Shown piece by piece: positions 17,896 through 38,737 of a stretch of DNA of 64,000 nt. Under the pieces are notes generated by a model. That model ran no database searches. It saw only the letters and a program-made list of their open reading frames with translations, and was not told where the DNA came from. Positions within the stretch are counted from its first letter, which is position 1; every line of letters starts with the position of its first letter. This stretch comes from Gammaproteobacteria bacterium (lineage in GTDB: Bacteria > Pseudomonadota > Gammaproteobacteria > JBCCGL01): assembly GCA_965277715.1 (NCBI GenBank), contig OZ255836.1:416001-480000 (forward strand). Reading direction: 5' to 3'. A program made the position numbers and the translations under genes.

Positions 17896-17968
17896 AGGTA
17901 TACCTCGATAGATATTCAGCATAATGTCAGTTGTAGGCTATCAGCGGTGGGCAAGATGCCATTTTTCG

Positions 17969-19270: not shown

Positions 19271-20168
19271 TACGGCTGCCCTCCAGGTAACAGTGAGGGC
19301 CGCGTAACGGTAGCGTCCGCCTCTTTTGCCTTACGCATTACGATAAAGACTTCGGTTTGTTCGCCCGGTAAAAGCGTTTCTTTTGGCCAGAATGCACCTG
19401 CCGCCATACTGGGGCTATGACAGGAGACCGCTTTTAGCGCAAGCAACCGTTCGGCAAAGCTGCGGACAACTCCGACATAAGCCGTAAAGTGATGACCAGT
19501 AAGCACTTGACCGCCAGTAAAATCAAACCGGGAACCCGGTTGAAAACAGTGTGGAATATGTTCCCCTGTCTGTACCGGGCGCAGGCCATAACCGGGGGGT
19601 AAGACGTTTAAAGCCAATGCACGAAACAATGCCCGTAGTGTATCTGTGTAAGTATCAGCGGTTTCCCAGCGCGCTGCTTTGGCGGTGGTGATACGTACTG
19701 GCTGATAACCTTCTGCCAGCCGTAAAGTTAGCTCACGTGGCGGTATCCGTTTGGGCACAAGCGTTAATGATAACGCCGGTTGTTCGGTATCGGCCGGGGT
19801 AATATAAAGCGCCACCGGGGTGTCATTATCCGTTGCCAGGTACACCACGTTATCGACGATTTGGGTTTGCGCATCGTTGGTAGTACGAATACGCGGGCCA
19901 TCAAATGGGGTGACAATACGGTTTAAGTGACCGAGGGCAATAGGTGCCAGCTCATTCACACCGGGTATTAATATCAGTGGTGTGGATGCTGCCGACTCTA
20001 CTGAGGTATGGGAGTTGGATACCGTAGCATCCCCTGTGTTCGCTGGACGCATAATATCGGCCGGAACGGCAGGTAACTCGACTTCACCAGCTACCGACAA
20101 TAGAGGCCAGACTAAAAAAAACCTGTAAGCAGCCAGCGACGGATAAAACGGGAAATTACGCTAGGCAT
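19270..20168 (-). pseudogene. traK: TraK; signal peptide out of frame at a T8 tract
   Basis: HLNRIVTPF, LTLVPKRIPPRE; upstream ATG at 20168 joins the ORF only if the T8 run (20114-20121) has one extra T. Confidence 0.75.
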
Positions 20169-20778
20169 CATTTGCCCTCCGTTGCGTTTTAAGGTTCTGT
20201 TGTGCGCGTACTTTTTGTGTACGGGCCTGACCTTCGTAGGTGTCCATCCAGGTCAACAAAGGCCGGTAATGATCGATCTCCAGTACAAACTCGTAGGTGC
20301 GCGTTTGACGCTCGGCGTCCCCGGCAGGCCCAGCGATGCGTGAGTAGCCCGTAATAAAGACTTTGCCGCTCACCGCCTCAAACTGCACCAAACGTGGCTG
20401 AAAACGCAAGGTAATACGATCCTCCCGAATCTGCTGGGCTTGAGATTCCAATACCCGCATCACATCGGCGTAAACCGTGGGTGACAATAAAGGCTCTAAT
20501 GTTTCACGGATAAAACGCAGATTACCGGGGGTTACATTGCCGATCAGTTCCGCCAGACATAGCCCCCAGGCTTCCAGGTACGACTGAGAGGCGTGACTGC
20601 GGGCGACTTCCGCCGAAGCGGACAGGCCCGGCGGTTGTAATACCACCACCGTGTTGCGGGAGAAGGTGGCCACGGCTAGCAGCAGATTGGCTACTACCAG
20701 TATGGCCAATGCAGCCCGCTGCCAGCGGTTTTCCATCAGAACCCCTTGCCAGGTCTGTAAAAAGGCTGCGAGCTTCAT
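20161..20778 (-). CDS. traE: Conjugative protein TraE
   Basis: TVVVLQPP, YLEAWG, GNVTPGN; ATGA overlap with traL. Confidence 0.87.
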   Translation of the reverse strand: MKLAAFLQTWQGVLMENRWQRAALAILVVANLLLAVATFSRNTVVVLQPPGLSASAEVARSHASQSYLEAWGLCLAELIGNVTPGNLRFIRETLEPLLSPTVYADVMRVLESQAQQIREDRITLRFQPRLVQFEAVSGKVFITGYSRIAGPAGDAERQTRTYEFVLEIDHYRPLLTWMDTYEGQARTQKVRAQQNLKTQRRANDA

Positions 20779-21056
20779 GGGAAATATACCCGGATAAACG
20801 GATTGGGAATGGTACGCGCCTTGGTTGGTAACAGACCCGCCCAATAGAGGGCGTGCAATAAATACCCATCGGGATGGCCGTCACGAAAACGGCGGTACAA
20901 GCGGGTCACGGCAAGGCCCAACAAACACAATAAAAGTGCCTGGCCGGTGAGAATGCCGATCACCAGACCGAGCATCAATGGGGCGATTTCATCAGCGCTC
21001 CAGAGTAGAAAATGGGGTGGATCGTCTATATACGACGGGATGGATACCGGCTCCAT
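20775..21056 (-). CDS. traL: Conjugative protein TraL
   Basis: IPSYIDDPPHFLLWSADE...PDGYLLHALYW. Confidence 0.9.
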   Translation of the reverse strand: MEPVSIPSYIDDPPHFLLWSADEIAPLMLGLVIGILTGQALLLCLLGLAVTRLYRRFRDGHPDGYLLHALYWAGLLPTKARTIPNPFIRVYFP

Positions 21057-21229
21057 GTTGACCTCAAGTTAATTAGAGGTGAGTAGGATGCCGCTTTTTG
21101 GGTTTGCTCAGCAGTGGGTTAAGTGCAAGTTTTTGTCACCTTTTGCGGGTTCGGTGCGGACACCGAATTTCGATACATAATTACCATCTGCACCATTAAC
21201 CCCTTTACCTTTAATAACATCCGGGTATA

Positions 21230-22111
21230 TTGGCAAGTATGAATGACAACATCGCCCACCTACCGGAATCCAAACAGGACGAGCTAAGACGTATTGCTGA
21301 AGTAATGCGCAAAGAATGCGATAGCGTGGAAATGGTTGTTCTATTTGGCTCCTATGCGCGTGGCGACTGGAAGGACGGCCCGCACGAACAGGGTCGGGGC
21401 CGATTGGTTATTCATAAAAAAAGTGACTACGATATTCTTGCTATTACCCGCCACGAATACATTGCAAAAGATGTGACGCTTTGGCACAAGATCAAAGATG
21501 AATGCACCAAACTGAACGTCAGCGCCTACGTTCGCATTCTTGCCCGTGATATTGAGTTTATTAATTACAAGCTTCATCAGGGACAGTACTTTTTTACCGA
21601 GATCATACAACAAGGTATCGCGCTTTATAACAGTGGAAATGTAGAGTTGGATGAAAAGCGACCGCTTGATCCTGCTGAGGAAAAGCGGATTATCCAAGAA
21701 GATTTGGATGAGATATTTTCATCAGCTAAAGCTTTTTATGAGGGCTGCGAGTGGAATATGACAAAGGAATATTTCAAGATAGCAGCTTTCAATCTTCATC
21801 AGGCATGCGAACATGCCTACAAAACCATTTTGCTGGTTTTTGCAGGTGAAAGTCCTCAAGAACATCATCTGGATGTTTTGGGTGATATGGCGGCTGACTA
21901 TTGCCCGGAATTGGCAAGTGTACTGCCGAGAGAAAAACCGGAGCAAAAAGCGCTATTCGAGTTATTGGATTATGCATATATTGGCGCTCGTTATGACCGG
22001 AGTTATAAAATTACCCAAGAGCAGTTGTTAGTTTTGATTCCCTGCGTGAAAAAACTGCATGAAGTGGTCGAAAAATGTAGCAGTGAGCGTATGGCGGGTT
22101 TTAAGGATTAA
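21230..22111 (+). CDS. MNT (nucleotidyltransferase)-HEPN fusion protein
   Basis: LFGSYARG...SDYDIL MNT motif; AFNLHQACE...AYIGARY HEPN motifs. Confidence 0.87.
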   Translation: MASMNDNIAHLPESKQDELRRIAEVMRKECDSVEMVVLFGSYARGDWKDGPHEQGRGRLVIHKKSDYDILAITRHEYIAKDVTLWHKIKDECTKLNVSAYVRILARDIEFINYKLHQGQYFFTEIIQQGIALYNSGNVELDEKRPLDPAEEKRIIQEDLDEIFSSAKAFYEGCEWNMTKEYFKIAAFNLHQACEHAYKTILLVFAGESPQEHHLDVLGDMAADYCPELASVLPREKPEQKALFELLDYAYIGARYDRSYKITQEQLLVLIPCVKKLHEVVEKCSSERMAGFKD

Positions 22112-22150
22112 AGAATTGCGAATCTACGCAATGCAAAGTGACTACATTCG

Positions 22151-22213
22151 GCAGAAATGGCTTTGTACCAGGCGAAGCAAAATGGCAGAAACTGCATCCA
22201 TGCGGAGATGAAG
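22151..22213 (+). pseudogene. GGDEF domain C-terminal scrap
   Basis: Reads AEMALYQAKQNGRNCI, matching the ADxALYxAKxxGRN consensus. Confidence 0.6.
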
Positions 22214-22255
22214 GGCATCGCTCACGGAGAATCTACCTTACGCTGAATTCAGGTA

Positions 22256-23050
22256 TTACAAAGTAGACAACATCTTCATCGCACTTTCACTACCGGCCCA
22301 ATATTTTCCATAACATCGCCAATACTCATACGCCTGATCGGCTCCACCCCAGGTAATCCCGCCCGACCAGCTTGATTTTGGCCGGGTGTGTCGTTTCTTT
22401 TTCAGTTCTTTAGCTACCAATGGAAGCGTATTGGTTGCCGAGACTAACAGCGGTTTAGCTTTATCGACTTCCCCCAGCAGTATCAACGCCAACGGATAGG
22501 TATAGGCAATTTCAGGGCCGCCGTCATCAGCATATGCTTTGCAGTGACGCACTATGGATAACACATCACCTTTTTCCAACCACAGTTCAGGAAGCAGATA
22601 ACGTACGCCTAAATTGTCGTTGGGACAAACCGCCAGAAGCCGGGAGTACACGGTTATGGCGGCATCCAGCTCACTTCGTTTTATGTACCACAGTCCCAGA
22701 TTATGATAGGCGCGCATAAAGGGGCGGTTTTCCAGAGCAAGCCATTCAATACGGGATTTTTTCCAGTTAAACTTTTCGGGCAGGGCCGAGAGGCCGATGC
22801 GGGTGGCTTCGCGGCAGCACAGATACGCCTCTAGCTCACGGGAGGTTTCTTCAAACAGCAACGAGAGGTGATGAAAGGCATCGATATGCCGGGGGTTTTT
22901 GTCGATGAAACTCCGAAGGAGTATTTCTGCTTGATCAAATTGCCCTTTGCGCCAATATTCCAGTGCGTTATCGAATGCCTCGCTTGTTTCCTGCGTAATA
23001 GTCGGATCACAAAAGACCCATTCGCCTTTTTCCCATTCTTCCCATTGCAT
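22256..23050 (-). CDS. TPR-repeat protein
   Basis: Helical repeats, ENRPFMRA and PNDNLGVRY motifs. Confidence 0.7.
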   Translation of the reverse strand: MQWEEWEKGEWVFCDPTITQETSEAFDNALEYWRKGQFDQAEILLRSFIDKNPRHIDAFHHLSLLFEETSRELEAYLCCREATRIGLSALPEKFNWKKSRIEWLALENRPFMRAYHNLGLWYIKRSELDAAITVYSRLLAVCPNDNLGVRYLLPELWLEKGDVLSIVRHCKAYADDGGPEIAYTYPLALILLGEVDKAKPLLVSATNTLPLVAKELKKKRHTRPKSSWSGGITWGGADQAYEYWRCYGKYWAGSESAMKMLSTL

Positions 23051-23156
23051 ATTTTCTACCGCTTACTATGTGATGTTACTTTTATATTATTCTATAAAAT
23101 TTTCTACGGCGCTATCGTAAACGCCGATGTTAAAAACCGATTTAACACTCAACAAC

Positions 23157-23696
23157 TTACACCCGCTTCTGCACATGACTAAGCGCAAGCCCCGCCAGCA
23201 AGGCCAGCCCCATAATAAATCCCGGCAACACCCAGGGGGGTATTGCTACTGGCATCCACAGGGCCATCCGCAGCAACAGGACACCGTAACCCAGCCCAAC
23301 CATACTAAACCGATGAATTACAGGGCTGGTGTAGTCAAAATTAGTCAGTCTAATCCGCCGAGTCATCCCGCCATCCCACAGGGCCGGTAGCATTAATAGC
23401 AAAGCAAACGGTAGCCAGGCCCGTAACAGCGCTAGGCGCACCAGCATTTGCTGTACGGTAGCGAAGAGTGCGGTGATGCGTCCCTCCACCCAATTAAACC
23501 ATTGCACACCCAGGTTTTCTAACTCGGTCGAGTTTTGGCGTTGTGTCTCCGTGGGAACCATAAAACGGTATACGGCTTGTTCTGCGCCGGTGTCCGTAAC
23601 CCATTGCCGATACCAATCTTTCGCGTGTTGGTTTATCCATTGTTGGGTATCCGGCCCCAGTTGCGATTGTATATAGCCCTGTTCTTTTCTAATCAC
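23157..23696 (-). pseudogene. DUF4400 (SXT s043/TraJ-like) protein, N-terminally truncated
   Basis: DGGMTRRIRLTNFDYTSP, ends HVQKRV; N-terminal TM missing, abuts an AbiEii fragment. Confidence 0.7.
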
Positions 23697-24263: not shown

Positions 24264-25037
24264 ATGCCATCAAAACTAAACTGGTTACTCAGCAATACAA
24301 TGCCCGGTACACTCGTACTTCAAGCGTGGTTGAGTAAACATGGCATCAGCCCCTCACTTACCCAAAAATATGCCGCCAGCAATTGGCTGCAAAAAAGACG
24401 GGCGGGTGTGTATACCCGCACCGGCCGCTCGTCAGAATGGCTCGATGCGGTTCATTGCCTGCAAACGCAATGCGCACTTTCGGTTCACTTGGCCGGTATT
24501 TCCAGCCTGGCGTATCAAGGGCGCACGCATTACTTATCCCTGGGTGAGGAAACGGTATGGTTGGCACTGGAAGAAAAGGTGCACCTGCCCGCCTGGTTCA
24601 TGTACTTTGCCGACGAGCAATGGTATCGAATATCCAACGTCAAACTGACGCACTTTACTGAAGAGGACTTCTGCCACTTAACGATAAAACATACCGAAAT
24701 AAAGGCGAGTAATATGGAGCTGGCGGCTCTGGAAACGCTCGCCACAGTGTCAAATTCATTGTCGTTTGAACATGCGGCAAAGTTGTTCCAGGGTTTGGTC
24801 AACCTCAGCCCAATTAAGGTTCAGTCGCTGTTGGAGCGAAGCCGCTCTGTGCAAGTCAACCGATTGTTTCTATTTTTTGCCCACTACTACAAACACGCAT
24901 GGTTGAGCCGACTGGACGAAAGTAAAATAAATATCGGTTCGGGTAAACGGCAAATTGTCAAAGGCGGCAAGCTGGAGAAGCGCTATCAGATTACCGTGCC
25001 GGAAAATTACGCTAAAGATACAATAAACGGTGGATAA
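24264..25037 (+). CDS. Type IV TA antitoxin AbiEi
   Basis: SKLNWLL, GRTHYL, SVQVNRLFLFFA, GSGKRQIVKGG...YQITVP. Confidence 0.87.
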   Translation: MPSKLNWLLSNTMPGTLVLQAWLSKHGISPSLTQKYAASNWLQKRRAGVYTRTGRSSEWLDAVHCLQTQCALSVHLAGISSLAYQGRTHYLSLGEETVWLALEEKVHLPAWFMYFADEQWYRISNVKLTHFTEEDFCHLTIKHTEIKASNMELAALETLATVSNSLSFEHAAKLFQGLVNLSPIKVQSLLERSRSVQVNRLFLFFAHYYKHAWLSRLDESKINIGSGKRQIVKGGKLEKRYQITVPENYAKDTINGG

Positions 25038-25944
25038 AAACTCTTCACATTACAAGCAAGTTTCACTGCTGGTGCAAACACTCCCCTATATTGCGCGGGA
25101 GTCTTGTTTCGCCCTCAAAGGTGGCACGGCAATTAACTTATTTGTCCGGGATTTTCCACGATTATCCGTGGATATAGATCTGGTCTACCTGCCGTTTGAA
25201 CCGAGGGATAGTGCGCTAGTGCATATTAAGGAGGGGCTGCGGAGAATTAGCGATCAACTTAACCAGCAACTTGCACTATCGGCGGTGCTGCAAGATGTCA
25301 AACCTGACGAAATGCGCATTATTGTTGAATCCAGTGAAGCACAAATAAAGATTGAAGTTTCCCCTGTAGCTAGAGGCACACTTTACCCACCGGTAGCAAT
25401 GGATATTGTCAAATCTGCTGAAAGGGAGTTTGGGTTTGCCTCCCTGCCTGTCGTCTCTATGGCCGACTTATATGGCGGAAAACTGTGTGCTGCTTTGGAT
25501 AGGCAACACCCCAGAGACTTATTTGATATCAAGTTATTGCTTGAGGCGACGGGTGTTGAACGGGACGTATTTGACGGGTTCATTACCTATGCGCTTTGTC
25601 ATAGCAGGCCAATAGCGGAAATATTCGCCCCGAATTGGCGGGATATAAGCGAGGATTTTTATAGCTAATTTTACGGAATGGCGAAGCAGGCAATAACGGC
25701 GAAAGAATTGGCTGACGTACCCTTCCAAATGCTCAAGGCGTTGAAGGCAAATTTTACTCCGAGGGATCACCACTTTATAATGTCGTTCAAAAGTGGAAAA
25801 CCCGACTGGGAGTATGCGCCGAATGAACGTATCTAAGATTTACCTGCTATAAAGTGAAAACTAATGAATATTCAAAAAATGCCTGCGGATAAGCACCAAA
25901 AACCGGTAGAAAAACTGAAAATGGTATTGGATACATGGCTGTGA
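25030..25944 (+). pseudogene. Type IV TA toxin AbiEii with three nonsense codons
   Basis: FALKGGTAINLF...RLSVDIDL, DRQHPRDLFD; in-frame stops at 25666, 25834, 25855; frame continues to TGA 25944. Confidence 0.87.
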
Positions 25945-26232
25945 ATCACCAACCATAGTAAAACCTATAGGCAGCGCCTGATAGTTTCGTACCAGATGAC
26001 AAGGAAAATTAAGAACATCCAATAACAATCTTCACCGCTTATTGGCAGTGAGCGACAATCAGTACTTGAAGGCATACCTAACCTAATGGATGATGTCTCT
26101 GTGTTTCCCGTTATAGTCGTGTTAGTAGTCTTTCTCCTGCAACTGATTATGTAAAGAGTGGGCTGTCAGACGGCAGTTTGAAGAGTGTGTTTGAGCAGGT
26201 TTGTAATTTTTTAGAAAATATTAAATATGACT

Positions 26233-26316
26233 GACCCCTTGGGTTGTCAGCATAATTTTGATTATAATGGGGATAATCCCTTGGGTTTAAGAAGCGGCCA
26301 TTTACCGATTGAATGA
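26233..26316 (+). other. Start-less toxin-tail-like ORF 1 (DPLGCQ...LPIE*)
   Basis: Open from TGACCCC in the Asp-Pro frame; stop overlaps the next gene as ATGA. Confidence 0.55.
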
Positions 26317-26756
26317 GTGAAATTATGGATTGGATGCGTCTAGATAAATATGAGGAAGCAAATAATGTTCTTGCGGATATAGATTGGCCACACTCTTTCA
26401 TTAGAGAAGCCCATATTGTATCGCCAAGTTACATTTTACCTGATAGCTTAGGAACAGTCGCACCTGATTATTTGCCATCTGCAAGAGTGTTTATTAGTAG
26501 TGCTTCTAGAAAAATTCCAGGGTTAGAATTATTATTTGTAGAAACAGAGGAATTTTCTGCTTGGTTTAATGGTGAATTAGAACCAGATATTTCAATTTTT
26601 GAAGATAGAGTTAAATGGAAATTCTATAAATTTCATGCCTCGATAGTATCTAAGCGTTTGTATTATAGATTTTTGGAAGTTAATTCTTGGGGTAGAAATT
26701 TGCACTATGGCTGGGAAGATGTTTACAGCGAAAAAGGGGAGTTAGTCATTTTATGA
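26313..26756 (+). CDS. Hypothetical protein, immunity-like
   Basis: AT-rich 147-aa ORF translationally coupled to tail 1. Confidence 0.65.
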   Translation: MSEIMDWMRLDKYEEANNVLADIDWPHSFIREAHIVSPSYILPDSLGTVAPDYLPSARVFISSASRKIPGLELLFVETEEFSAWFNGELEPDISIFEDRVKWKFYKFHASIVSKRLYYRFLEVNSWGRNLHYGWEDVYSEKGELVIL

Positions 26757-26768
26757 ATATTGTAGCGT

Positions 26769-26818
26769 TGTAGCGTGCCATTTTCTGGTAGTATAAATTC
26801 CCAAATTATCGATCATAA
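26769..26818 (+). repeat. 50-bp repeat, copy 1
   Basis: TGTAGCGTGCCATTTTCTGGTAGTATAAATTCCCAAATTATCGATCATAA; 47/50 identical to 28731-28780. Confidence 0.9.
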
Positions 26819-26887
26819 GGGAATATAAAGCGCGAATTCAAGTAGTAAGTGCAATTCCTTCTAAATTAACGGTACAAATTGTTTATG

Positions 26888-27693
26888 ATAAAAGGGTCAA
26901 GTATACTATTGCATAATTTTGGTGTACTGCTATACTCCTTAAATGCCAAGACCTCTACGCATAGAGTATGAAAACGCCTACTACCACGTAACGTACCGAT
27001 GCACCGTTATTGCAGAGGCGTTACAAAGCGATCTGCATTGAAGAAAATAGTTATCAGCTTCAACTCTCTCGCTATATTCACCGAAACCCGCTGGAAGCTA
27101 GGTTAGTAAAGAATTTGGCGGATTACCCCTGGTCCAGTTACAACGATTATGCAAATGGTCGTTCATCACAGGAGTGGCTTTACCAGGGGGATATCCAGGC
27201 TCAGCTCGGTGTGCCTCATCAGCGGTATTTTGCGCAACGATACTGAGTTTATGTGGAGCAAGGCATTGATGAAGAAATCAGGCGATTCTACGGACGGGGA
27301 AATCAAATGCCTTATTTGGGCAGTGAGGATTTCCGCAGTTGGGCCTACGAGCAACGTGAAACTATAGATAGTGCAGTTAACCGTAGTGACTTACAGCAGT
27401 TTAGACCTATGGTAGGTGAATGGATTATTCGGGTGTCGAAATCGTTGAAGATTGAGCGTGAAGATATCCTCCGACCGTCAAGGGGAGGGTTGAAAGCGAA
27501 AGTAGCGAGAGATTTATGTATGTACCTGTGTCGAGAAGAGGGTGGGCATAAGTTGGTAGATATTGCCGAAGTCTTCGGTTTCAAGCGATACGGTAGTGTA
27601 TCAACAGCTATTAGGCACTTTTAAACTCAATTGGCAGGTGATTTAACGTTGCAAAAATTACTTAAAAAACTTATATGATACATGACCCTTTTA
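26888..27693 (+). mobile_element. Y1/RAYT-like transposase element copy 1 (defective)
   Basis: Near-identical to copy 2 but lacks about 224 bp including the HYH motif and has stops at 27244 and 27622; ends ATAAAAGGGTCAAGTA and TACATGACCCTTTTA. Confidence 0.88.
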
Positions 27694-27734
27694 CTGATAG
27701 AAGGGGTGGTTCTCGGAGGGGGGGCTGTGATTAG
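27684..27734 (+). other. Start-less toxin-tail-like ORF 2 (DPFTDRRGGSRRGGCD*)
   Basis: Open from TGACCC in the Asp-Pro frame; stop overlaps GTG at 27727. Confidence 0.45.
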
Positions 27735-28092
27735 AAATTTTCTTGTTGTATTTTTTTTAATTATATTATATTCATTTTCATTGTTTTTTTCGGAATTAAT
27801 TTTTTGGTTTTACGCAATAATTAGCCCTATAATAGTTAGTACTCTGGGATATAGTGCCTTATTGCTATCTCCTATAGTGAAAAGATTTATCCTCTCATTT
27901 GTGCCTTTAGTATCACTGCCAGTTACAGTATTTTTTCCAAATTTAGAAAATAACCAAATAATTATCTTTTTACATTTTTTTGTAATTGGTTTTGCTTTAA
28001 CTCAATTGTATGAGGCAACTTTGTGGATTTTTGAGTTGGTTTTTTCTATTTTTATAAAAATAAAAAACCACGTTCTTAGAACGTGGTTTTGA
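27727..28092 (+). CDS. Small multi-TM hypothetical protein, immunity-like
   Basis: Very AT-rich hydrophobic ORF; GTG start overlapping tail 2. Confidence 0.6.
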   Translation: MIRNFLVVFFLIILYSFSLFFSELIFWFYAIISPIIVSTLGYSALLLSPIVKRFILSFVPLVSLPVTVFFPNLENNQIIIFLHFFVIGFALTQLYEATLWIFELVFSIFIKIKNHVLRTWF

Positions 28093-28394
28093 CTTCATAG
28101 TATTTTGGGTTTTCAAAGAGCTTTCTTATTTGTGAGAAAAGCCGTATTGGGATAACCAGCTTTAGATGAAAGGGGTATTGTGTAGGTGCAGCAGGAGTGG
28201 GAGCAGAGATAATACGGGGTATCAAGAGAAAGTGGAAAGAAGCTTAGAACTAAATTTTTAGATCTATTTATAGCCGAAGCGCGATGACGGGTAGCCTGTC
28301 TTCTATGAAAGCTGGCTTTATACGCTCTTCTAGAGCGTGAATTTTTACTTAAACCATTGTTACTATCGATGATGACTAGCTGGTGAATTTAATT

Positions 28395-28859
28395 ATGCAT
28401 AATTTTCATTATATTTTTTATTTGTTACTTTTTATATTCGCAATTATAGGTCTTTTATTTCAAATTAAATTAAAACGTTTATTACTTGAAAAAGAGAAAA
28501 TTTTCTGTGAATCGATTTCTTTAACAAATAGTTTTCTAACAGATAGTCCAAGAGCGTCATGGAAATTTTTGATGCTGATAGTTTTTGATACTAATAGAGA
28601 ATCTTTATCAAATGGTGAAGTTCTAGTTAAATTGAAAAAGGCGAAAATATTTTTTTATATATACATTGTAATTTTTTTTATCTACGTGGCTTTTTTTTTA
28701 GCTGTGGCGAGCGGTGTTTGTCAAGGTAATTGTGGCGTGCCATTTTCTGATCGTATAAATTCCCAAATTATCGATCATAATATTTTTCAGCTTTCCAACG
28801 TTTTTGCCACACTCTGTGTCATAACAAAAAATATTTTTACCATCACTGCTGTCTCGTGA
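28395..28859 (+). CDS. Two-TM hypothetical protein (3' end probably read-through into repeat)
   Basis: AT-rich ORF with two hydrophobic segments; the last ~40 codons run through the 50-bp repeat. Confidence 0.55.
   Translation: MHNFHYIFYLLLFIFAIIGLLFQIKLKRLLLEKEKIFCESISLTNSFLTDSPRASWKFLMLIVFDTNRESLSNGEVLVKLKKAKIFFYIYIVIFFIYVAFFLAVASGVCQGNCGVPFSDRINSQIIDHNIFQLSNVFATLCVITKNIFTITAVS
28731..28780 (+). repeat. 50-bp repeat, copy 2
   Basis: TGTGGCGTGCCATTTTCTGATCGTATAAATTCCCAAATTATCGATCATAA. Confidence 0.9.
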
Positions 28860-28882
28860 AGATAAAGGGGCCAAGAATAAGA

Positions 28883-29917
28883 AAATAAAGGGGTCAAGTA
28901 TACTATTGCATAATTTTGGTGTGCTGCTATACTCCTCAAATGCCAAGACCTCTACGCATAGAGTACGAAAATGCCTACTATCACGTAATGAACCGAGGTA
29001 GGGGAAGGCAGCGTATATTTCCTGACGATGAGTACTACTCGCTTTTTCTTGAACTCCTTGCGCAGGCTTATAGACGTTTTGGCCTACAGGTTCTTTGCTA
29101 TTGCTTGATGAGTAACCACTATCACTTATTGGTGAAGACACCGGAAGCTAATTTGGGACGGTGTATGCGGCACATCAATGGGCTTTATACACAGCGGTAC
29201 AATAAACAGAAACGTACCGATGGGCCGTTATTTCAGGGGCGTTACAAAGCGATCTGCATTGAAGAAGATAGCTATCAGCTTCAACTCTCTCGCTATATTC
29301 ATCGAAACCCATTGGAAGCCAGGTTAGTAAAGGATTTGGCAGATTACCCTTGGTCCAGTTACAACGATTATGCAAATGGTCGTTCATCACAGGAGTGGCT
29401 TTACCAGGGGGATATCCAGGCTCAGCTCGGTGTGCCTCATCAGCGGTATTTTGCGCAACGATACCGGGCTTATGTGGAGCAAGGCATTGATGAAGAAATC
29501 AGGCGATTCTACGGACGGGGAAATCAAATGCCTTATTTGGGCAGTGAGGATTTCCGCAGTTGGGCCTACGAGCAACGTGAAACTATAGATAGTGCAGTTA
29601 ACCGTAGTGACTTACAGCAGTTTAGACCTACGGTAGATGAATGGATTATTCGGGTGTCGAAATCGTTGAAGATTGAGCGTGAAGATATCCTCCGACCATC
29701 AAGGGGAGAGTTGAAAGCGAAAGTAGCGAGAGATTTATGTATGTACCTGTGTCGGGAAGAGGGTGGGCATAAGTTGGTAGATATTGCCGAAGTCTTCGGT
29801 TTCAAGCGATATGGTAGTGTATCAACAGCTATTAGGCACTTTGAAACTCAATTGGCAGGTGATTTAACGTTACAAAAATTACTTAAAAAACTTATATGGT
29901 ACTTGACCCCTTTATTT
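28883..29917 (+). mobile_element. Y1/RAYT-like transposase element copy 2 (intact) with perfect 18-bp inverted ends
   Basis: AAATAAAGGGGTCAAGTA at 28883-28900 and TACTTGACCCCTTTATTT at 29900-29917. Confidence 0.9.
28906..28933 (+). promoter_or_regulatory. Sigma70-like promoter of the Y1 transposase (likely leaderless mRNA)
   Basis: TTGCAT-16 nt-TATACT with TGn extension, 6 nt before the ATG, no RBS; present in all three copies. Confidence 0.55.
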
Positions 29918-29923
29918 ATGTAA
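28940..29923 (+). CDS. HUH Y1 (RAYT-like) transposase with C-terminal DnaA-like HTH
   Basis: YHVMNRG, MSNHYHLL (HUH), FQGRYK, RYIHRNP (catalytic Y), YPWSSY; C-terminal ARDLCMYLCR...DIAEVFG...SVSTA. Confidence 0.9.
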   Translation: MPRPLRIEYENAYYHVMNRGRGRQRIFPDDEYYSLFLELLAQAYRRFGLQVLCYCLMSNHYHLLVKTPEANLGRCMRHINGLYTQRYNKQKRTDGPLFQGRYKAICIEEDSYQLQLSRYIHRNPLEARLVKDLADYPWSSYNDYANGRSSQEWLYQGDIQAQLGVPHQRYFAQRYRAYVEQGIDEEIRRFYGRGNQMPYLGSEDFRSWAYEQRETIDSAVNRSDLQQFRPTVDEWIIRVSKSLKIEREDILRPSRGELKAKVARDLCMYLCREEGGHKLVDIAEVFGFKRYGSVSTAIRHFETQLAGDLTLQKLLKKLIWYLTPLFM

Positions 29924-30075
29924 AAACAGTTGATGAAGCACCTGCTTTGGCTCTTGGTGTGACCCGTGCACGTAATTTTACTAAATTGTCTGTTACAAAT
30001 TTTGGTAAGTTATCAATTGCGGCTGAAGTTTTATCCGATATAGATCGAGGTTATGAGGCTTATTTCGGTGATTAA
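29905..30075 (+). other. Start-less toxin-tail-like ORF 3 (DPFIYVK...AYFGD*, 56 aa)
   Basis: 56 open codons in AT-rich DNA in the Asp-Pro frame of TGACCCC, no ATG; stop 38 nt before the next gene. Confidence 0.55.
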
Positions 30076-30113
30076 AGAGAGATGAGTTCGATAGTTTTTA
30101 ATTAAAATTATTT

Positions 30114-30581
30114 ATGAAATATACAATTTCTAAAAAATATATAAAGCGAGTAAAAAGAAGTCCTGTCTCCTATACAGTATTAGGGGTGGTATTAGGTAGT
30201 ATTCCACTTTTAGGCAAGGAAGTTCCTGTATATATAGGTGTATCTGTCACTATTAGTGTCGCTATCTTAATGGGAGGGGCTCGCTGGCTTTGGGTGAAAA
30301 AGCGAGTTAAGTTATATTATGAGCATAAACTTGAGGTGTCTCAAGGGAATTTAACCCTTGAAAATGAGGGAATGAAATCAACGTTACAATTATCTTTTGT
30401 GCATAAAATTATATTATATAAAAAAGGAAATTCTGTACATTTAATAGCTATTGAGAACACTAAAGGTTATAAAGAATGGTTATATCAATATGAAAATATG
30501 AGTGAATTGGCTGATAGTTTACAAAAATATGTTCCACTAGAAAAGATTAAAGTGAAAAGTTGGCTTTATTTATATTTGTAG
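30114..30581 (+). CDS. Two-TM hypothetical protein, immunity-like
   Basis: AT-rich 155-aa ORF following tail 3. Confidence 0.65.
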   Translation: MKYTISKKYIKRVKRSPVSYTVLGVVLGSIPLLGKEVPVYIGVSVTISVAILMGGARWLWVKKRVKLYYEHKLEVSQGNLTLENEGMKSTLQLSFVHKIILYKKGNSVHLIAIENTKGYKEWLYQYENMSELADSLQKYVPLEKIKVKSWLYLYL

Positions 30582-30638
30582 TATAACACTGCTGTCCCGT
30601 TAAGAAGAGATAAGGAGGCCTGATAAAGGAAGATAAAG

Positions 30639-30793
30639 AAATAAAGGGGTCAAGTATACTATTGCATGATTTTGGTGTGCTGCTATACTCCTTAAATGCC
30701 AAGACCTCTACGCATAGAGTATGAAAACGCCTACTACCACGTAATGAACCGAGGTAGGGGAAGACAGCGTATATTTCCTGGCGATGAGTACTA
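30639..30793 (+). mobile_element. Y1/RAYT-like element copy 3 (left end plus first ~32 codons)
   Basis: AAATAAAGGGGTCAAGTA at 30639; similarity to copy 2 ends at GATGAGTACTA. Confidence 0.88.
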
Positions 30794-31464
30794 TTAAAAA
30801 CACTGCCGGGTGTAGGGCCTCTGGTCGCCACTACCTTGTTTACAGCAATGGGCGATCCGGGTTTTTATAAAAACGGGCGTGAGTTTTCCGCCTTTTTAGG
30901 TCTCGTTCCTCGTCAATATAGTTCGGGGGGCAAAACACAACTCAAAGGTATCAGTAAACGCGGGGACGAACACGTGCGCACTTTGTTGATACAGGGGGCG
31001 CAAGCGGCATTAAGTCGAATGCCTAAACACGATGATGGGCTAAGTCGTTGGGCCTGTCGTGTCAAAGCACGTCGGGGCCATTGTGTGGCGGCGGTGGCAT
31101 TGGCCAATAAGCTCGCCAGAATTAGCTGGGCGGTAGCGGCTAATAATACAACTTACGCGCATAAAACAGCTTAATAACGTCGTTGGATATTTCTTACCAC
31201 GAGGTAGCGAAAGAGCAGTAAAGGGTATAACAGGTTAAACCGGCTCAGACAGAACCTGGAGGGGTCATGGTCTTCACAGACCGATTGCTTGATGAGGTGT
31301 CTGAGCACGGTTCCCATTATGGCTCTGGACGGATAAACAAATACAATCCGTCCTATCGAGAAGCCGGATATATGACTGCTAACCTTATTTACTGTGACTG
31401 CACTGAACGCTAAAAAATGAATGAACGATTAAAAAATTGTTGAATTTAACTGCGGGTCCATATA
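30794..31464 (+). mobile_element. IS110-family (IS1111-type) remnant: transposase 3' part plus non-coding right end
   Basis: TLPGVGP, FKNGR-like YKNGREFSAFLGLVPRQYSSGGK, AVALANKLARI (stop 31174); about 290-bp 3' non-coding region ending GGTCCATATA. Confidence 0.87.
31230..31380 (+). ncRNA. Putative IS1111 seekRNA/bridge-type RNA
   Basis: Stem GCTCAGACA/TGTCTGAGC enclosing an internal loop with GGGGTCA and TTGCTTGA around a GGTC-TTCACA-GACC hairpin; boundaries approximate. Confidence 0.6.
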
Positions 31465-31509
31465 TGACCCCTTTATACTGGCTACACCAAACTGCGCCAA
31501 GATATAATC

Positions 31510-31681
31510 TACGCTAAAGATACGACAAACGATGGATAAAAACTCCTCATACTACAAGCAAATTTCACTGCCAGTGCAAACACTCCTCTATATTGCGCGG
31601 GAGTCTTGTTTCGCCCTCAAAGGTGGTACGGCAATGAACTTATTTGTCCGAGATTTTCCACGATTATCCGTGGATATAGAT
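31510..31681 (+). repeat. Diverged 172-bp duplicate of the abiEi/abiEii junction (25008-25179)
   Basis: TACGCTAAAGATAC...CCGTGGATATAGAT colinear with substitutions. Confidence 0.9.
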
Positions 31682-31911
31682 TATGACTAATATGTTTCTA
31701 TGAATGAGCAACATATCCCGTTTTCTCGCCAATTTGCTTCACCAACAGAGGAAATGCTTCGTGACCCTGAATATCTATCGATGTGTGGACACAAACTTGA
31801 CAAAACCCTCAGTTGGAAAGACATCTTGCAGGCCCTGTGTGTCAACCTCACCTCAAGCCACTATGATTTAAGTTAACATCTAAATCAGGGCAGCTATCGA
31901 GAGTGAGAACA

Positions 31912-32325
31912 ATGCCAAAACCAATGTTAGATAAACCACAACCTGAGTCATGTGAGATCAAGCCTGATCGGACACTTGAGAAAAAGACTCGCCGCACTTT
32001 TACAGCAGCCTATAAGCTAAAGATGATCAATCAAGCTGATGCTTGCCAGCATGGACAGCTTGGCGCTTTGCTACGCCGTGAGAAGCTTTACTCCAATCAA
32101 TTGTCTCAGTGGCGAAGAGAACTGGCCGAAGGCGGTTTGTCAGGGCTATCAAAAAGCGCGCCCGGCCCTGCACCGCAAATGACGTCTGAGCAGCGCCGGA
32201 TAGCGCAGCTTGAAAAACAAGTAAACCGTCTGGAAAAACAAATCGCCCTTAAGGATGACTGTCTGGAACTCCAAAAAAAAGCCTTGGCGATGCTCGACCG
32301 ATTGAACAGCGGGATCGAGCAGTGA
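31912..32325 (+). CDS. IS3-family OrfA
   Basis: RRTFTAAYKL HTH, LLRREKLYS, coiled coil. Confidence 0.85.
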   Translation: MPKPMLDKPQPESCEIKPDRTLEKKTRRTFTAAYKLKMINQADACQHGQLGALLRREKLYSNQLSQWRRELAEGGLSGLSKSAPGPAPQMTSEQRRIAQLEKQVNRLEKQIALKDDCLELQKKALAMLDRLNSGIEQ

Positions 32326-33401
32326 ATACCGCGTTGACTGACCGCCCACCCTCAGTGTCCCAACGTCTGGCTTGTAAGGTATTGGCATTGTCACGGTCAC
32401 ACGTCCGGGCCAAGCAAAGCCGCCGCCATTTCTGTGGCCCTCCCAAACCAGCAGGAACCGTGCGAATCACTTGCCATCAGCCACGCCAACTGAGTGAAGA
32501 AGAATGCTCTGTGGTATTGAATACGCTCAATAGTGAAGCGTTCTATGATCAACCACCGGCGCAGGTTTACCATACCTTGCTGAGTCGCCGTATTTACCTC
32601 TGCTCCATCAGCACCATGCACCGCCTGCTGCGTCAGTCCGATCAGTCGGGGGAACGCCGAAAACAGCGTCCTGGGCAAACCAACGCAGTGCCAAGGCTTT
32701 CGGCCAGTCAGCCTAATGAGGTCTGGACATGGGATATTACAAAATTGGCCACCGTTAAGCGCGGCGTTTATTTATCGCTCTATGTGGTGATGGATTTATT
32801 CAGTCGCTACATCGTGGCCTGGATGCTTTCCCATAAAGAAAACAGTGCACTGGCACAGCAGCTCATTCAGGAGGCCAGTACACGTTACGCGATTAGACCC
32901 GACCAGCTGACGCTGCATCAGGATCGAGGGGCACCGATGACCGCACATTGCTACCTTGACTTACTGGGCGAGTTGGCGGTCACCGCTAGCCACAGCAGAC
33001 CCCGCGTGAGTAATGACAATCCTCATAGTGAAAGCCAATTTCGAACACTGAAGTATCAGCCTGACTACCCGCGTCGCTTTGATAGCTATAGCCATGCCAA
33101 TGGATGGTGCACTGAGTATATTGATTGGTATAACCATCAGCACTGTCACAGTGCGTTGGAGGGCTTCACACCTTGTCAGGTGTTTACTGGGCAGTACATA
33201 CCACTCAGTGAGGTTCGTCAGCAGGCACTCAATGAAAAGTATGTCCAACATGCAGAGCGATTTGTCAATCAGCGGCCTGTTGTCAGGATGCCGCCTGCGA
33301 AGGTCTACATTAATCCCGTGCGCGATGAACTGGGTAATATAGATCACGATGCACCCGTCAACTTCCCAACACTAAATCGGGCTAAATATATGGTAACTTG
33401 A
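32322..33401 (+). CDS. IS3-family OrfB DDE transposase
   Basis: WTWDIT, HQDRG, SNDNPHSESQF integrase core. Confidence 0.88.
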   Translation: MNTALTDRPPSVSQRLACKVLALSRSHVRAKQSRRHFCGPPKPAGTVRITCHQPRQLSEEECSVVLNTLNSEAFYDQPPAQVYHTLLSRRIYLCSISTMHRLLRQSDQSGERRKQRPGQTNAVPRLSASQPNEVWTWDITKLATVKRGVYLSLYVVMDLFSRYIVAWMLSHKENSALAQQLIQEASTRYAIRPDQLTLHQDRGAPMTAHCYLDLLGELAVTASHSRPRVSNDNPHSESQFRTLKYQPDYPRRFDSYSHANGWCTEYIDWYNHQHCHSALEGFTPCQVFTGQYIPLSEVRQQALNEKYVQHAERFVNQRPVVRMPPAKVYINPVRDELGNIDHDAPVNFPTLNRAKYMVT

Positions 33402-36400
33402 GTAACTGTGGCTTGAAACAGGTTGACACCTTCCGCAGGAACGCTGTGTTGTCGTACTGGGAGAAGGTAAATCTGGAAAAACCCATGAGTTCAAACAACA
33501 GGTAAAAGAACTGAGTTCCCAAGGCAAGCCTGCCATCTTTCTGCCACTCGAACTGCTCCACGACAATGTAATTGAGGACGTCTTGGGAGCCGAGGATAAC
33601 CGAATATTCCAGAACTGGCTAAACTCGGAATATGGGGATGCCTATTTCTTTTTAGACGCTGTCGATGAATTGAAGCTTCGCAAAGGTTCGTGGCGAGTCA
33701 CGCTAAACAAACTTCAACGCCTCATAGGGCCAAATATTGATCGAGTACGTCTTTTTGTTTCGTGCCGTCCTTTGGACTGGAATGACGAAATCGACATAGA
33801 GGAACTCAAGTCTTGGCTAACCCAAGGTATAGAAGTACAAGAGAGAAAGCACACAAACACTATATCTACATCAGGTGAAGATGTTTTTTTATCGGCGATC
33901 AAGCAAGCAGCCGATTCAAATACCGAGTCGAGCGATACGACGAATAAACCTGCCAAGAGACAAGTGAAAACCCTTGCTTTGTTGCCACTAAGCCAGAGTG
34001 AAATTACCGAGTTTGCAAGCTTATATCGCCCTACGTATGTTGAAAAACTCAAACAGGTGTTCGAAAAAAACGAACTTTGGCATCTTTATCAAGCGCCCGC
34101 CGATATTATGGATGCGCTGGATCTATTACACGCAAACGGGCAACTGGGAAGCCTCGAAGAACAATTGCGATTTGGCATTGAAAGCAAACTTAAAGAAACT
34201 TCAAACAAGAAACGTAACGCGCTTTCAATAGCGAAAGCAAAGGAAGGTGCGGAGCGTATTGCATTGGCGTTATTCCTGATAAAACAGAGGTCAATTCAAC
34301 TTCACGGAAACCAGAACGAGGGGTTTGACGTCGCCAAATTACTCACTGATTGGGCGCAAACAGATATAGAAGAGCTTCTGGGACGACCAATATTCGACCC
34401 AACAGGTGTTGGCTCGGTTCGTTTCCATCATCGCTCTACGCAGGAATTTCTTGCGGCAAGTCGGCTTAAGTTGTTGCTTGAAAATGGTCTATCTCGCGCC
34501 GATTTAAATGGCTTGCTCTTCAACGAGGTAAGTGGCGAGCGTGTGACTATTCCCAGCATGGAACCCATTACAGCGTGGCTTGCTCTATGGGATAGCGATA
34601 TCTTACGGGAAGTCGTAGAGCGAAAGCCCACCTTACTATTTCGCGAAGGTTTGCCTGCATCCATGAATGTTGATCTGCGTGCCAAACTCCTGCGTCGGTA
34701 CGTTGAACTTTACGCCAATAGTGAATGGCGTGGCGTGGGTGTTGGCCACTCAGAATTGAAACGGGTAGCTTCACCAGAGCTGGGTGCAGTGGTGCGCGAA
34801 CTCTGGTCAACCGCCTATACCGGTGAAGATACGCGTGAAATTTTTCTGGAATTGATTTGGCTAACGCCATTACGTGACTGCCTTGATTTGGCTTATCAGG
34901 CTGCCTTTGATAAACAACTGCCACCGCATCATCGCGTCTATGCCTGCTGGTCTATTACACAGTTTGGCAGCAGCGAACAAAAAAAGGCGCTTGGTACTTC
35001 AATATTAAAACAGCATTGGCCTGAACGAGTTGTCTGGGATGTAATGCCTTATCTATTACCAGAGTCGCTTACCGTTGAGCAGTTTGCAAGGCTTTCTCTG
35101 GCTCAACAGGAAACACCGAATACTGTATATGATTTGAGCTACTCACTTTATCAAACCATGAAGTCTGACGATATCTCAGATGCCATAAAAGTTGAATTAC
35201 GTAACCGTTTCACTAATGCGGTTTGGGAAAATCGCAGGCCTGAAAGCAAAATTTATCAGGCCCATTCAAATTTTCACCACCTAAACGATGCAATATTGAC
35301 CTGCTGTAACGCGATCAGACCACACTCAGATAAAGAAATTGCAGTTTGGACATGGTCGCTTTGTGTAGCGTTTCATTTTAGCAAGCGGCACTCAAGCACT
35401 ATTGCTATAGATGACACAAATGCTCTACGTAAGTTGCTGAATACCAATACCGCATTCAAAGAAGCTTTCTATTGGGCTTGCTTTGAATTTGCTGAACAGA
35501 TTGAAGACTCGGGAAATGACTGGGAACGCTTTATTAACACTGACTACGAAACTATTAGGCCTCTCAAGTTAAACGATATACCGTGGTTACTAACCGCACT
35601 TGGCAATGTGAATCAAGAAGAACGGCGTGGCACGGCGTTCTATGCTCTGTCAGGTTTTATTAGAGCTGGTGAAAAACCGGATTTATCTGCTGAAATTAAA
35701 TCGAATATTTCTGATCGCCTCGATTTACTTCAAGAGTTAGAAAAAGCACTGAACCCACCGAAACGCGAACCACAAGACTATGAGGTCGAACGTATTAGAC
35801 GAAAAAAAAAAAACAAAAACGTAAAGAAAAAAAGCGGATCGAACAGTGGCTGGAATGGCGCCGAGAGGTTTTGAATGCGCCAAATTTTCTGTTGGATGAA
35901 AAAGAACGAGAACACACTCTTTACAATTTCCATAAAGTGTTACGAGGACATAGTGACGGGCGCTCCTCTTGGGGAAACTGGGATGCAGGTTTTATTTCAG
36001 ATGCATTTTCCAGTGACTTTTTACTTAGCTTGCGCACCGCACTGCAACTATTTTGGCGAGGCCAGAAGGTTCAGCTTTGGAGTGAGCGTCCACCAGACAA
36101 ACGAAACTCATTTTGCGACTCTTGGTTGTTATCCCTTATCGCTGTAAAAAGTGAAGCCGGGCAAAGGGGCTGGGCAGATAAACTGACTGAAAGCGAAACC
36201 AGATTGGCCGCTAGAATTTCCACACTTGAATTGAACGGTTTTGCAGGTTTTCTCCCTAGCCTTGAGCAGACCCATCCAAGCATAGTCTACGACGTTATGG
36301 GAACAGAGTTGGGAAGCCAGTTGCGCGGCTTTACAAGCAATGAAACGGCGCCATTACTACATGACCTTTTGTATCACGGCAGTATAGGTATACAGCGATC

Positions 36401-37840
36401 CGTCGCCGGCGTTATTACGGATAATTATCATTACTTACCCACAAACCTTTCCGGCAATGTGAAGAACGAGGTGAAATACGCTTTTAAGATAGTAGCCTTA
36501 CACGGCACCTGCGAAGAAAAACATGCAGCATTGCGGTTAATCCAACATCGCCTTGACGCACTAAATTCGCAGGGGAGTGAAATTGAAGCTATTTGGATTA
36601 GCCTAATGGCAAAGCTGGATTTGCGACTTGCCTGCAAGCGCATACTAAGTAAAACAAACAACCTGAATACCGGAGACGAACAGGATTGGGCCATTACTCT
36701 ATTCGCCGAAATTTTTGGTGATCGACATACTGACGCCAGACCTGGTTTTGACCAAATACCCATGTCGGAGCGGGGACAAATATTGAAGGATATGGTTATA
36801 CGCGCCTACGCCACTGTTCGCGTGGAAGACGATATACACCACGATGGGTGCTACACACCTGGGAAACGTGATCATGCTGAAACAGCCCGAAGCTATCTGT
36901 TTAGCTCACTGATTGAAACTAAGTCACCGCATACCCTGTTGACCTTATATGAATTCTCGGAAATGCCTGAATTTGCTCATATGAAGGATCGTCTTAAACA
37001 AATAGCAACAGAAGTGGCTGCTCAAATATGCGAACCAGTCCCCATGCCGCTCGATACATATCGTCGGTTCGATCAACAACAATCATATTCACCGTACGAC
37101 AAACCGTCACTATTTATGGTGATGAATAACCGAATAGCGGACTTCCGTCATCATCTATTAAAAGATGAGTTTTCTACTATTGACACATTAAGGAAGATTG
37201 ATAGTGAAACCGAGCTAAGGCGTTTTATTGCCAATTGGCTCAATCAGAATAGTCACGGTGCTTACACCATCACTCAAGAAGCAGTGAAAGTAAGTGAAAA
37301 CCGGACAGATATTCGTCTTCAACCTTATAGTGGTGATTTCCACGCGACCATAGAGCTAAAACTCGTTGGAAAGAACAAACCATACTGGAGTGGAGTTGAT
37401 CTGAAAAATGCATTGATTGATCAGTTAATAGAAAAATACCTCAGCGATGATCGCTGCACGGTCGGATGCTTGCTGATCTGCATGCGTGAGCCACGGCAGT
37501 GGCAAAACCCCGAAACAAAGAAAAAGATGAATCTAAAGCAGACAGTCGATTGGTTGCAAAGTATTGCAGATAAATTAACGGAAAATACCCCCAATTTGTG
37601 GGTTTCTGTCAAAGGTATCGATTATTCTCGCCAAGAAATTCGCCAATCCCACTAGGCTAGGCTATAACGTCTATGCTACCTGTTGATCATATACCCAATT
37701 CAAAACGGGTAGCTCTCACTAAATCAAGCTCGCTACGCTTGCCTGATTTAGTCGTGTGTCAGATTAGATCTAAACTTATACCACTTGGTACGAAAATACT
37801 TGACCACTACACTACCTGGCCACTATACGAATTCTTTTAC

Positions 37841-38737
37841 CTAAATTAAATGGTCACTGCTGAGACTCTCAATCTTCCTCAAACAAAGCCTTTCCACCAT
37901 CCCCTGCAAGCACACCACGCGCTCGGCCAACCACTCAAGCTCTTCCGCCGTAATTTCATAGTGCTCAGAATAACGGGCGTCTACATAGGCTTTTTTCAAC
38001 AACTGAAACCGGCGGCGTTGTATTTTGGTATCTTGCGGAAAAACCCCGGCAATGCCTTCATGTTGCAAAATAGCCAGGGAGTTAAGTTGTTGCAAATTGT
38101 GGGTATTGGGTTTGTAGTTGGTTAATACCAATAGGAAGCAGGAATATAGTCTTTCCGTCGCCTGATGAAGTTCAAAAGCCGCTTTTTTATAACGATTTTT
38201 TCGCAAGTCATCGTGGAAGGTATCGAAGAATTCACCAGCACTCTCAAACCATTGCCTATAATACTTTTCCGCAATAGCCTTATATTGCGTTGGCGATAAA
38301 TTACCCTCTTGCACCAACTCAGTTTTGTCAAATTCATACAGCAAAACGCCCTGCTGTTTAATATCAGAAAAAAAATACTGCCCCTCCATTAAGGCATTAT
38401 TCACTTCCTTCAGGGTATGTACCAGAATATTGATAGGGGGCCGCACACGCAGGGCGACCCGCTCATCAACGGCATTCCAGAGTTTGTAGTCCTCCACCAG
38501 TTCGGCTTTATTAAGAATCACCAGAATATCGTAATCGCTGACATAACCGTGGGCCGGGTCATTCACCCACTTACCCGTGGCAAAACTGCCAAACAGAATA
38601 ATCTTGGCGATACGGCTGTGCTTTTTCTTGCCGTTGGCAAAGCCGGTTACTTGCTCAAATTCGTCACGTATTACTGAAACGATATGGGCAATATCATTTT
38701 GCTTGGAGGTGGGTAAATGATCGAGGGATCGCTGCAT
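37841..38737 (-). CDS. MNT-HEPN fusion protein
   Basis: ILFGSFATG...SDYDIL; AAFELHQATE...THNL...AYVDARY. Confidence 0.88.
   Translation of the reverse strand: MQRSLDHLPTSKQNDIAHIVSVIRDEFEQVTGFANGKKKHSRIAKIILFGSFATGKWVNDPAHGYVSDYDILVILNKAELVEDYKLWNAVDERVALRVRPPINILVHTLKEVNNALMEGQYFFSDIKQQGVLLYEFDKTELVQEGNLSPTQYKAIAEKYYRQWFESAGEFFDTFHDDLRKNRYKKAAFELHQATERLYSCFLLVLTNYKPNTHNLQQLNSLAILQHEGIAGVFPQDTKIQRRRFQLLKKAYVDARYSEHYEITAEELEWLAERVVCLQGMVERLCLRKIESLSSDHLI

Follow-up and report, generated by a model that had tools for sequence, protein, structure and literature searches.

An array of small genes punctuated by transposon copies lies between positions 26112 and 31681 of a 64,000-nucleotide (nt) stretch of contig OZ255836.1 (positions 416,001 to 480,000, forward strand; Gammaproteobacteria bacterium, assembly GCA_965277715.1), hereafter the window. 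Its layout and sequence relationships make it probable, at a modest level of confidence, that TIRtrons (also called TIRYTs) helped to build it as an orphan immunity-gene array, through end-directed joining and selection on immunity genes. The initial annotation of the window had described a Y1 HUH transposase with a DnaA-like helix-turn-helix (HTH) that punctuates toxin-tail/immunity arrays, and this description holds up: in another genome, right ends of the same kind of element are joined to truncated rhs genes. The toxin-tail/immunity reading of the window itself is drawn from one small gene with an Rhs-linked relative (imm1), from stop/start overlaps between tails and small genes, from low G+C content, and from the same architecture elsewhere, including the closest homologous locus (L001).

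A unit comprising a right end, a short open reading frame (ORF), one or more small AT-rich genes, and the next left end recurs three times, as first annotated; we located the cores and ORFs again. In window letters, the right-end cores (TGACCC) are at 26232, 27683, 29904, and 31465, and the left-end cores (GGGTCA) are at 26894, 28891, and 30647. The G+C content of the cassettes is 31.5-34.7%, versus 50-54% in the host. The features, all on the plus strand, are as follows (aa, amino acids).

26112..26238, +: 3' end of a second, multicopy element, closing in TGACCCC; its frame (...ENIKYD*) takes the TGA as stop
26227..26316, +: tail T1 (MT-DPLG...LPIE, 27 aa from D); stop overlaps the next ATG
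26313..26756, +: imm1, small gene (143-147 aa, soluble); 6 homologs, Rhs-linked distant relative
26768..26818, +: copy 1 of a 51-nt repeat, a piece of another multicopy element; copy 2 is 28730-28780
26889..27693, +: TIRYT copy 1, both ends present; lacks ~214 nt internally and carries a nonsense codon (27622-27624); 93-96% identity to copy 2
27675..27734, +: tail T2 (MIH-DPF...GGCD, 16 aa from D); its stop codon and GTG 27730 overlap
27730..28092, +: imm2, small membrane-protein gene (120 aa; 136 aa from the alternative start ATG 27682)
28395..28859, +: imm2b, small membrane-protein gene behind a degraded stretch (28100-28390); its frame continues through the 51-nt repeat
28858..28900, +: left end 2 (AAATAAAGGGGTCAAGTA) and, at 28858-28879, its degenerate outward tandem copy
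28940..29923, +: intact TIRYT transposase, copy 2, 327 aa (Y1_Tnp + Bac_DnaA_C)
29896..30075, +: right end 2 (29900-29917) and tail T3 (MVL-DPFI..., 56 aa from D)
30114..30581, +: imm3, small gene (155 aa, N-terminal membrane segment)
30634..30793, +: left end 3 plus a 5' stub (~98 nt) of transposase copy 3
30793..31466, +: IS1111-type IS110 remnant; its right non-coding end folds and carries end-matching words
31465..31474, +: the "fourth end", the outer half (TG|ACCCCTTT) of a TIRYT end that served as IS1111 target
31510..31681, +: orphan duplicate of the abiEi 3' end and abiEii 5' end, 92% identical to 25008-25179, beginning 45 nt behind the last end

Transposase copies do stand between the cassettes as annotated, but only copy 2 (28940-29923) is intact; copy 1 is deleted and carries a stop, and copy 3 is a 5' stub. 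The right end at 26232 had been annotated as an element right end, but no copy of the window's TIRYT transposase stands upstream of it, and it closes a different multicopy sequence. The stretch 26112-26203 has high read depth and an identical loose 5' end in four of four runs. We infer, on grounds other than homology, that this second element is also a TIRYT.

By its sequence, the intact transposase is a known TIRYT of TnpA-REP subclass 2.1 (2.1.2) with GGGGTCA inverted ends, an assignment based on domains and ends. Its Y1 domain matches PF01797 (E 1.9e-13), and the model NF047646 scores 75.8 bits, just below its cut-off of 80. The catalytic motifs are NHYHLL (HUH, H60-Y61-H62) and YIHRNP at 119, and residues 238-299 form an HTH domain matching PF08299 (Bac_DnaA_C, E 5.2e-8). 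A perfect 18-nt inverted repeat (28883-28900 and 29900-29917) includes GGGGTCAA, which has 7 of the 8 letters of GGGG[AT][CG]A[CG], and the GGGTCA/TGACCC core is common to 189 ends that we compared. The claim of a new system does not survive this comparison, since Y1 transposases flanked by terminal inverted repeats (TIRs) and carrying Bac_DnaA_C are the published TIRYTs. TIRtrons/TIRYTs with the motif GGGGWSAS were named by Di Nocera 2013 (PMC3733652), and TIRYTs with Bac_DnaA_C tails were placed in TnpA-REP subclass 2.1 by Quentin 2018 (10.1101/279083), according to the available parts of both texts. Those parts, together with what is accessible on RAYT group 1 (PMC5581495), describe the features found here, namely a Y1 HUH core with a Bac_DnaA_C tail, TIRs, and no REP hairpins; short TIR pairs elsewhere in genomes are likewise common to TIRtrons and the present family. 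The string "rhs" has no occurrence in the texts of PMC3733652 and 10.1101/279083, and the portions of the TIRtron accounts that we examined hold no Rhs link, junction analysis, or nick site, unlike the present analysis. A literature search, with subscription papers and supplements (e.g., the neighbourhood tables of Quentin) outside its scope, found no report of a TIRYT or RAYT joined to Rhs arrays, and within that scope a role at Rhs loci appears undescribed for this known element class.

The ends distinguish the element from better-known Y1 transposons. Five stretches, spanning left end 2 plus right ends 1 and 2, showed no more stable folding than shuffled sequences (z -0.09 to +2.37). The element falls outside IS200/IS605, having inverted ends, no subterminal hairpin, and only 16 bits with NF033573. 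As described in the accessible text of PMC8266576, IS200/IS605 and REP/RAYT elements use the same Y1 HUH chemistry with a 5'-phosphotyrosine, whereas the window ends are inverted and hairpin-free and the enzyme has an extra HTH.

The link to Rhs loci emerged from other genomes (loci fetched are denoted L, genomes G, read sets X, and database proteins P). G001, the genome of L023, is that of a cultured strain, Exilibacterium tricleocarpae R142. Of its nine Y1 matches, seven have one of the 42 Rhs cores no further than 5 kb away (0.53 expected). The sequence rhs, immunity gene, left end, element, right end, truncated rhs fragment recurs in this genome, and end pairs of 100-270 nt punctuate further Rhs arrays. 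Among 401 sampled genomes of the same taxonomic order, 58 have a Y1 match. In the 57 besides G001, an Rhs core stands no more than 5 kb from eight of the 73 matches (0.43 expected), and all eight are on the same strand with rhs upstream. When Rhs regions were picked by the Rhs core alone, 5 of 20 carried left ends, all in the same orientation (7/7), against a background of 3 left-end matches in 4.46 million strand-bases.

The joints between right ends and rhs were analysed in G001, where an rhs parent was found for seven of nine right-end junctions examined. Four of these joints enter rhs ahead of the core motif, by about 355, 122, 120, and 80 codons, and three lie past DPxG, by about 5, 15, and 40 codons. 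At all seven, a few filler bases separate the end from rhs, which resumes 5-18 nt past the TGACCC core. Two junctions in L192, separated by about 10 codons, are almost identical in filler, which is consistent with stepwise trimming. With one parentless 141-aa tail included, the core is read as Asp-Pro (DP) in three, TP in one, and TGA in four of eight cases; the ninth junction (L194:4515) enters an immunity-like gene and was excluded from this count. Only one of the three DP-frame junctions is open from the DP codons.

The initial annotation had envisaged that the enzyme recombines at GAC-CCx codons resembling its own end and swaps toxin tips exactly at DPxG, in the manner of an integron. In its favour, all three cassettes and L001 are in the DP frame and T1 reads DPLG; junction L192:4105 also lies about 5 codons behind DPTG, in frame, and a natural rhs core can hold TGACCC at S-D-P (L225:13806). 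We nevertheless consider it very improbable. None of the seven parented junctions is on DP codons, the frames vary as given above, and the positions are scattered over about 400 codons and three frames, which also contradicts a fixed crossover. The expectation that the DP frame is kept more often than one time in three fails as well: among 47 right ends (those with >400 nt downstream among 80 homolog loci), the longest frame is DP in 13, +1 in 21, and +2 in 13. The chance of three of three in one named frame is 1/27, and the pattern does not generalise beyond the window. Moreover, T2 and T3 read DPF, and the 189 ends conserve C at +6 (78-84%) and T at +7/+8 (64-72%), so that both DP and the following F are properties of the element end. 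In homologs, the TGA of TGACCC is often the transposase stop codon. The window tails (16-56 aa) are also shorter than nearly all tips behind Rhs cores (85-366 aa, one of 27).

The tails themselves were largely as annotated. The DP-frame ORFs at 26232, 27683, 29904, and 31465 are 27, 16, 56, and 13 aa long; the stop of T1 overlaps ATG 26313 (ATGA), that of T2 overlaps GTG 27730, and that of T3 precedes 30114 by 38 nt. The three tails are not strictly start-less: the element end itself provides an in-frame ATG for every one of them (26227, MTDPLG; 27675, MIHDPF; 29896, MVLDPF), with no evident Shine-Dalgarno sequence at these ATGs. A database protein (P0009) is the 59-aa MVLDP product of T3. In L001, an end is followed by a 46-aa tail in the DP frame and then by a small gene. 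T2 (16 aa) is too short for homology search. One candidate relative of T3 (P0010) was rejected as a tandem-repeat protein artefact; otherwise the search of 1.84 billion representatives returned T3 itself alone.

Short outward tandem copies of the end, consisting of the core and a few flanking bases, are present at 41 of 189 ends (1.9 expected; e.g., L001:1024-1103). Their units measure 8-43 nt, 42 of 57 copies start no more than 2 nt away from the T of TGACCC, and left end 2 of the window holds one degenerate copy. In the accessible text of PMC8266576, related TnpA-REP enzymes cleave C|T (the bar marks the cut) and hold the T side as a phosphotyrosine. Because the tandem copies start near the core and the related enzymes cut in this way, a nick just 5' of TGACCC is the probable initiating event. 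The chemistry of end joining may then be pictured as follows. The HTH would bind the inner part of each repeat, and the HUH domain would nick just 5' of TGACCC and keep the TGACCC side on its tyrosine. The free 3' end on the element side could be extended and rejoined, giving short tandem end copies, or the extending end could switch to a distant site, giving an adjacent deletion or an end-joined integration with homology on the left and the element end on the right. Repeated rounds would cut toxin genes back to tails without a set length or frame, and intact immunity genes would be preserved by selection. In this best explanation, the small genes of the window would be retained immunity genes and the tails leftovers too short to be an active toxin. 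One-ended displacement of this kind fits both the G001 arrays and the abiE duplicate of the window.

Joining is not restricted to toxin genes, because the right ends of L153 join other gene ends: at L153:9238-9710, their partners are a C-terminal fragment of another Y1 gene and a 96% copy of the terminal part of a small gene that lies further downstream.

A more far-reaching version, which we regard as doubtful, makes TIRYTs dedicated HUH recombinases for polymorphic-toxin loci, whose nick just before TGACCC primes outward copying, so that a unit made up of tail, immunity gene, and next element could leave as a circle or enter a resident rhs gene by one end. If true, the non-homologous joint in Rhs C-terminal displacement would come from the TIRYT, which would also stack immunity genes, as a TIR-based, rolling-circle-like counterpart of the integron. 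More generally, the observations bear on the origin of orphan toxin-immunity arrays and on the function of a large TIRYT subclass, and an HUH enzyme acting on hairpin-free inverted ends would be a distinct mode of Y1 transposition. A candidate enzyme and a candidate nick site (x|TGACCC) emerge from the data, as does a cultured strain rich in junctions.

Parts of this organisation have counterparts in known systems. In orphan arrays of Rhs and contact-dependent inhibition (CDI) loci, a full toxin gene and its immunity gene are followed by truncated toxin fragments with their own immunity genes, and these arrays are usually ascribed to homologous recombination. The order is alike here, but the fragments start at transposon ends, and the window has no identified rhs core. 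IS26 translocatable units, one-ended capture by ISCR/IS91 elements, and integrons similarly produce direct-oriented element copies alternating with cargo, or one end joined to variable points; the enzymes differ, and the cargo here has no attC-like site or fixed crossover. Full and truncated TnpA-REP copies of subclass 2.1 are interspersed in fixed orientation in prochlorosin arrays, for which diversifying recombination was proposed and causality later qualified by the authors (Laurenceau, 10.1101/2020.03.09.984088). The genes face each other in those arrays and no inverted repeats were found, whereas the genes here are co-oriented and the junctions are at TIR ends.

The assignment of the small genes as immunity genes is best founded for imm1, which has six homologs at 55-66%. 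A distant relative in L177 overlaps the stop of an Rhs toxin gene (hhalign 96%, E 4.7e-9, a score somewhat inflated because the relative was found through a shared motif; TIGR03696 in the upstream ORF). On this sequence relationship imm1 is likely an Rhs immunity protein, and one of the four window genes thus has a relative directly behind an Rhs toxin. L178, the other metagenome match to imm1, has no clear toxin upstream. In a comparison of window tails and genes with all fetched loci, only imm1 was matched (L177, L178), and its family was not found in 399 sampled genomes of the class of G001, in viral contigs, or in plasmids, with no usable Atlas match. The products of imm2, imm2b, and imm3 carry hydrophobic segments. 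For imm3, a single near-identical protein was found; proteins resembling it in features are unnamed, with DUF5381 at rank 26 as a lead only. A perfect, terminator-like hairpin lies at the end of imm2 (28064-28090).

The cassettes need not derive from toxins if small genes of every sort (toxin-antitoxin pairs, secreted proteins, or immunity genes) can be captured or bounded by TIRtron ends. Repeated left ends amid small secreted-protein genes (L163, L167, L114), TIRYT arrays with toxin-antitoxin genes (G394), and the interspersal of the subclass with prochlorosin arrays (10.1101/2020.03.09.984088) all suit such a general platform, as does the fact that three of the four window genes have no assignable function. 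We judge it rather improbable as the whole account, given the Rhs-linked relative of imm1 and the stop/start overlaps and low G+C content, which suit toxin-immunity pairs; it is in part compatible with an array of retained immunity genes rather than exclusive of it.

Several results weigh against an array built from Rhs loci by end-directed joining. The window has no identified Rhs core in ORF scans, and no tail matched a toxin: no longer protein containing T3 was found among 94 candidates, and the similarity of T1 to the L177 toxin end was equalled in 410 of 5000 shuffles (p about 0.08) and exceeded by 2 of 39 control tips. No family was assigned to imm2, imm2b, or imm3 by Pfam or NCBIfam. 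The junction data come from one genome (G001), and just 1 of 35 general loci carries duplicated upstream DNA behind the right end (38 minus three rows dropped as slicing artefacts). The enrichment of Rhs in homolog flanks, anticipated by the initial annotation, is borne out in the 57 genomes (8/73), but the Rhs motif was found by pattern in only 2 of the 80 closest homolog loci, and the family is not toxin-specific. Four TIRYT copies and extra left ends occupy a lipopolysaccharide locus amid toxin-antitoxin-like pairs (L150-L151, G394:C1:4510000-4531000), and a TIRYT array in G067 adjoins what we take, from its sequence, to be a GMP-synthase-like gene. In five Rhs-rich genomes, Y1 elements are near Rhs in 8 of 14 cases versus 4 of 26 for other insertion sequences (IS; Fisher p 0.011), which speaks for the link; however, the distances were read from tables, three of the five genomes were chosen with the Y1-Rhs pair already known, and other IS also gather near Rhs.

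Such findings could mean that Rhs loci are a passive hotspot, in which the TIRYT would insert into AT-rich, dispensable DNA as an ordinary IS-like element does, Rhs arrays would expand through homologous C-terminal displacement, and the ends of host deletions would fall near the repeats by chance. T-rich DNA does flank the ends, most homologs are in unrelated contexts, other IS are enriched near Rhs, and the array sits within a decayed, IS-rich conjugative island; RAYT group 1 is also described as the most IS-like group in the available part of PMC5581495. We hold a passive hotspot to be unlikely, if still worth serious consideration. Placement on the same strand downstream of rhs is strict (8/8 and 7/7), whereas three of the four other IS near Rhs are on the opposite strand; at seven junctions the rhs fragment begins 5-18 nt past the TGACCC core; and the tandem end copies imply activity at the end itself. 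These points favour end-directed joining by TIRtrons.

The fourth end, at 31465, had been annotated as giving a 13-aa frame and no immunity gene. That frame exists, but the site is a target half-site of an IS1111-type element and not a failed cassette, as argued by the match of IS1111 words to the TIRYT end and by a second case in L148. The adjoining IS110 remnant (30793-31466) has a 290-nt right non-coding end that folds (z -3.3 and -2.5). A long right non-coding end is typical of the IS1111 group (PMC11208160, accessible text), and on its sequence features we place the remnant in this group of IS110. Within that right end, AGGGGTCA (31260) and TGCTTG (31286) match the two sides of the TIRYT end, and ATATATG (31368) matches the remnant's own end. 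In L148 (327-1403), a complete homolog lies within a TIRYT left end and, like the remnant, ends in TATATG|ACCCC, so that IS1111-type elements at TG|ACCCC of TIRYT ends are known from two genomes. Two X7 contigs continue differently after 31474. Titles in the reference list of PMC11208160 indicate that IS4321/IS5075, also of the IS1111 group, target Tn21 repeats. A putative right-end non-coding RNA with target-matching words is common to both cases, as far as that source allows comparison, and in the window and L148 it is the TIRYT repeat that is targeted.

Sponge metagenome runs are listed as containing near-identical DNA, and one X5 contig (record 18) spans 28982-30767. No circle or cassette-skipping joint was found in the contigs of four runs, and contigs drop rare forms; contig cover was next to none for cassette 1 in X1, X5, and X7 and little in X4, and little for cassette 2 in X5 and X7, which does not argue that the cassettes are absent there. 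A promoter scan was uninformative (13 sites, 16.6 expected). The 51-nt repeat (26768-26818, 28730-28841) trails two small genes and, in read contigs, belongs to a multicopy element running into a TGAC-like end elsewhere.

Runs of ~110-aa signal-peptide genes, some split by repeated left ends, occur next to Y1 genes behind Rhs loci (L163:5855-6783, L167:5064-9691, L166:6438-8377, L162:9108-9854, and L114:1205-1552) and look like a second cassette type.

The decayed conjugative island around the array includes tra genes, an integrase, AbiE, HEPN, and IS3-like and IS66 transposases. The 92% duplicate of the abiEi/abiEii junction (25008-25179, 31510-31681) brackets the whole array, and the upstream abiEii has in-frame stops. 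Other island parts (15015-23696, 31833-41783) hold the integrase, a PIN gene, traV/traB/traK/traE-like genes, and the IS3-like and IS66 elements. HEPN-nucleotidyltransferase-like genes lie at 21230 (by Pfam) and 37841 (by resemblance), and two large ORFs of no assigned family occupy 33583-37655.

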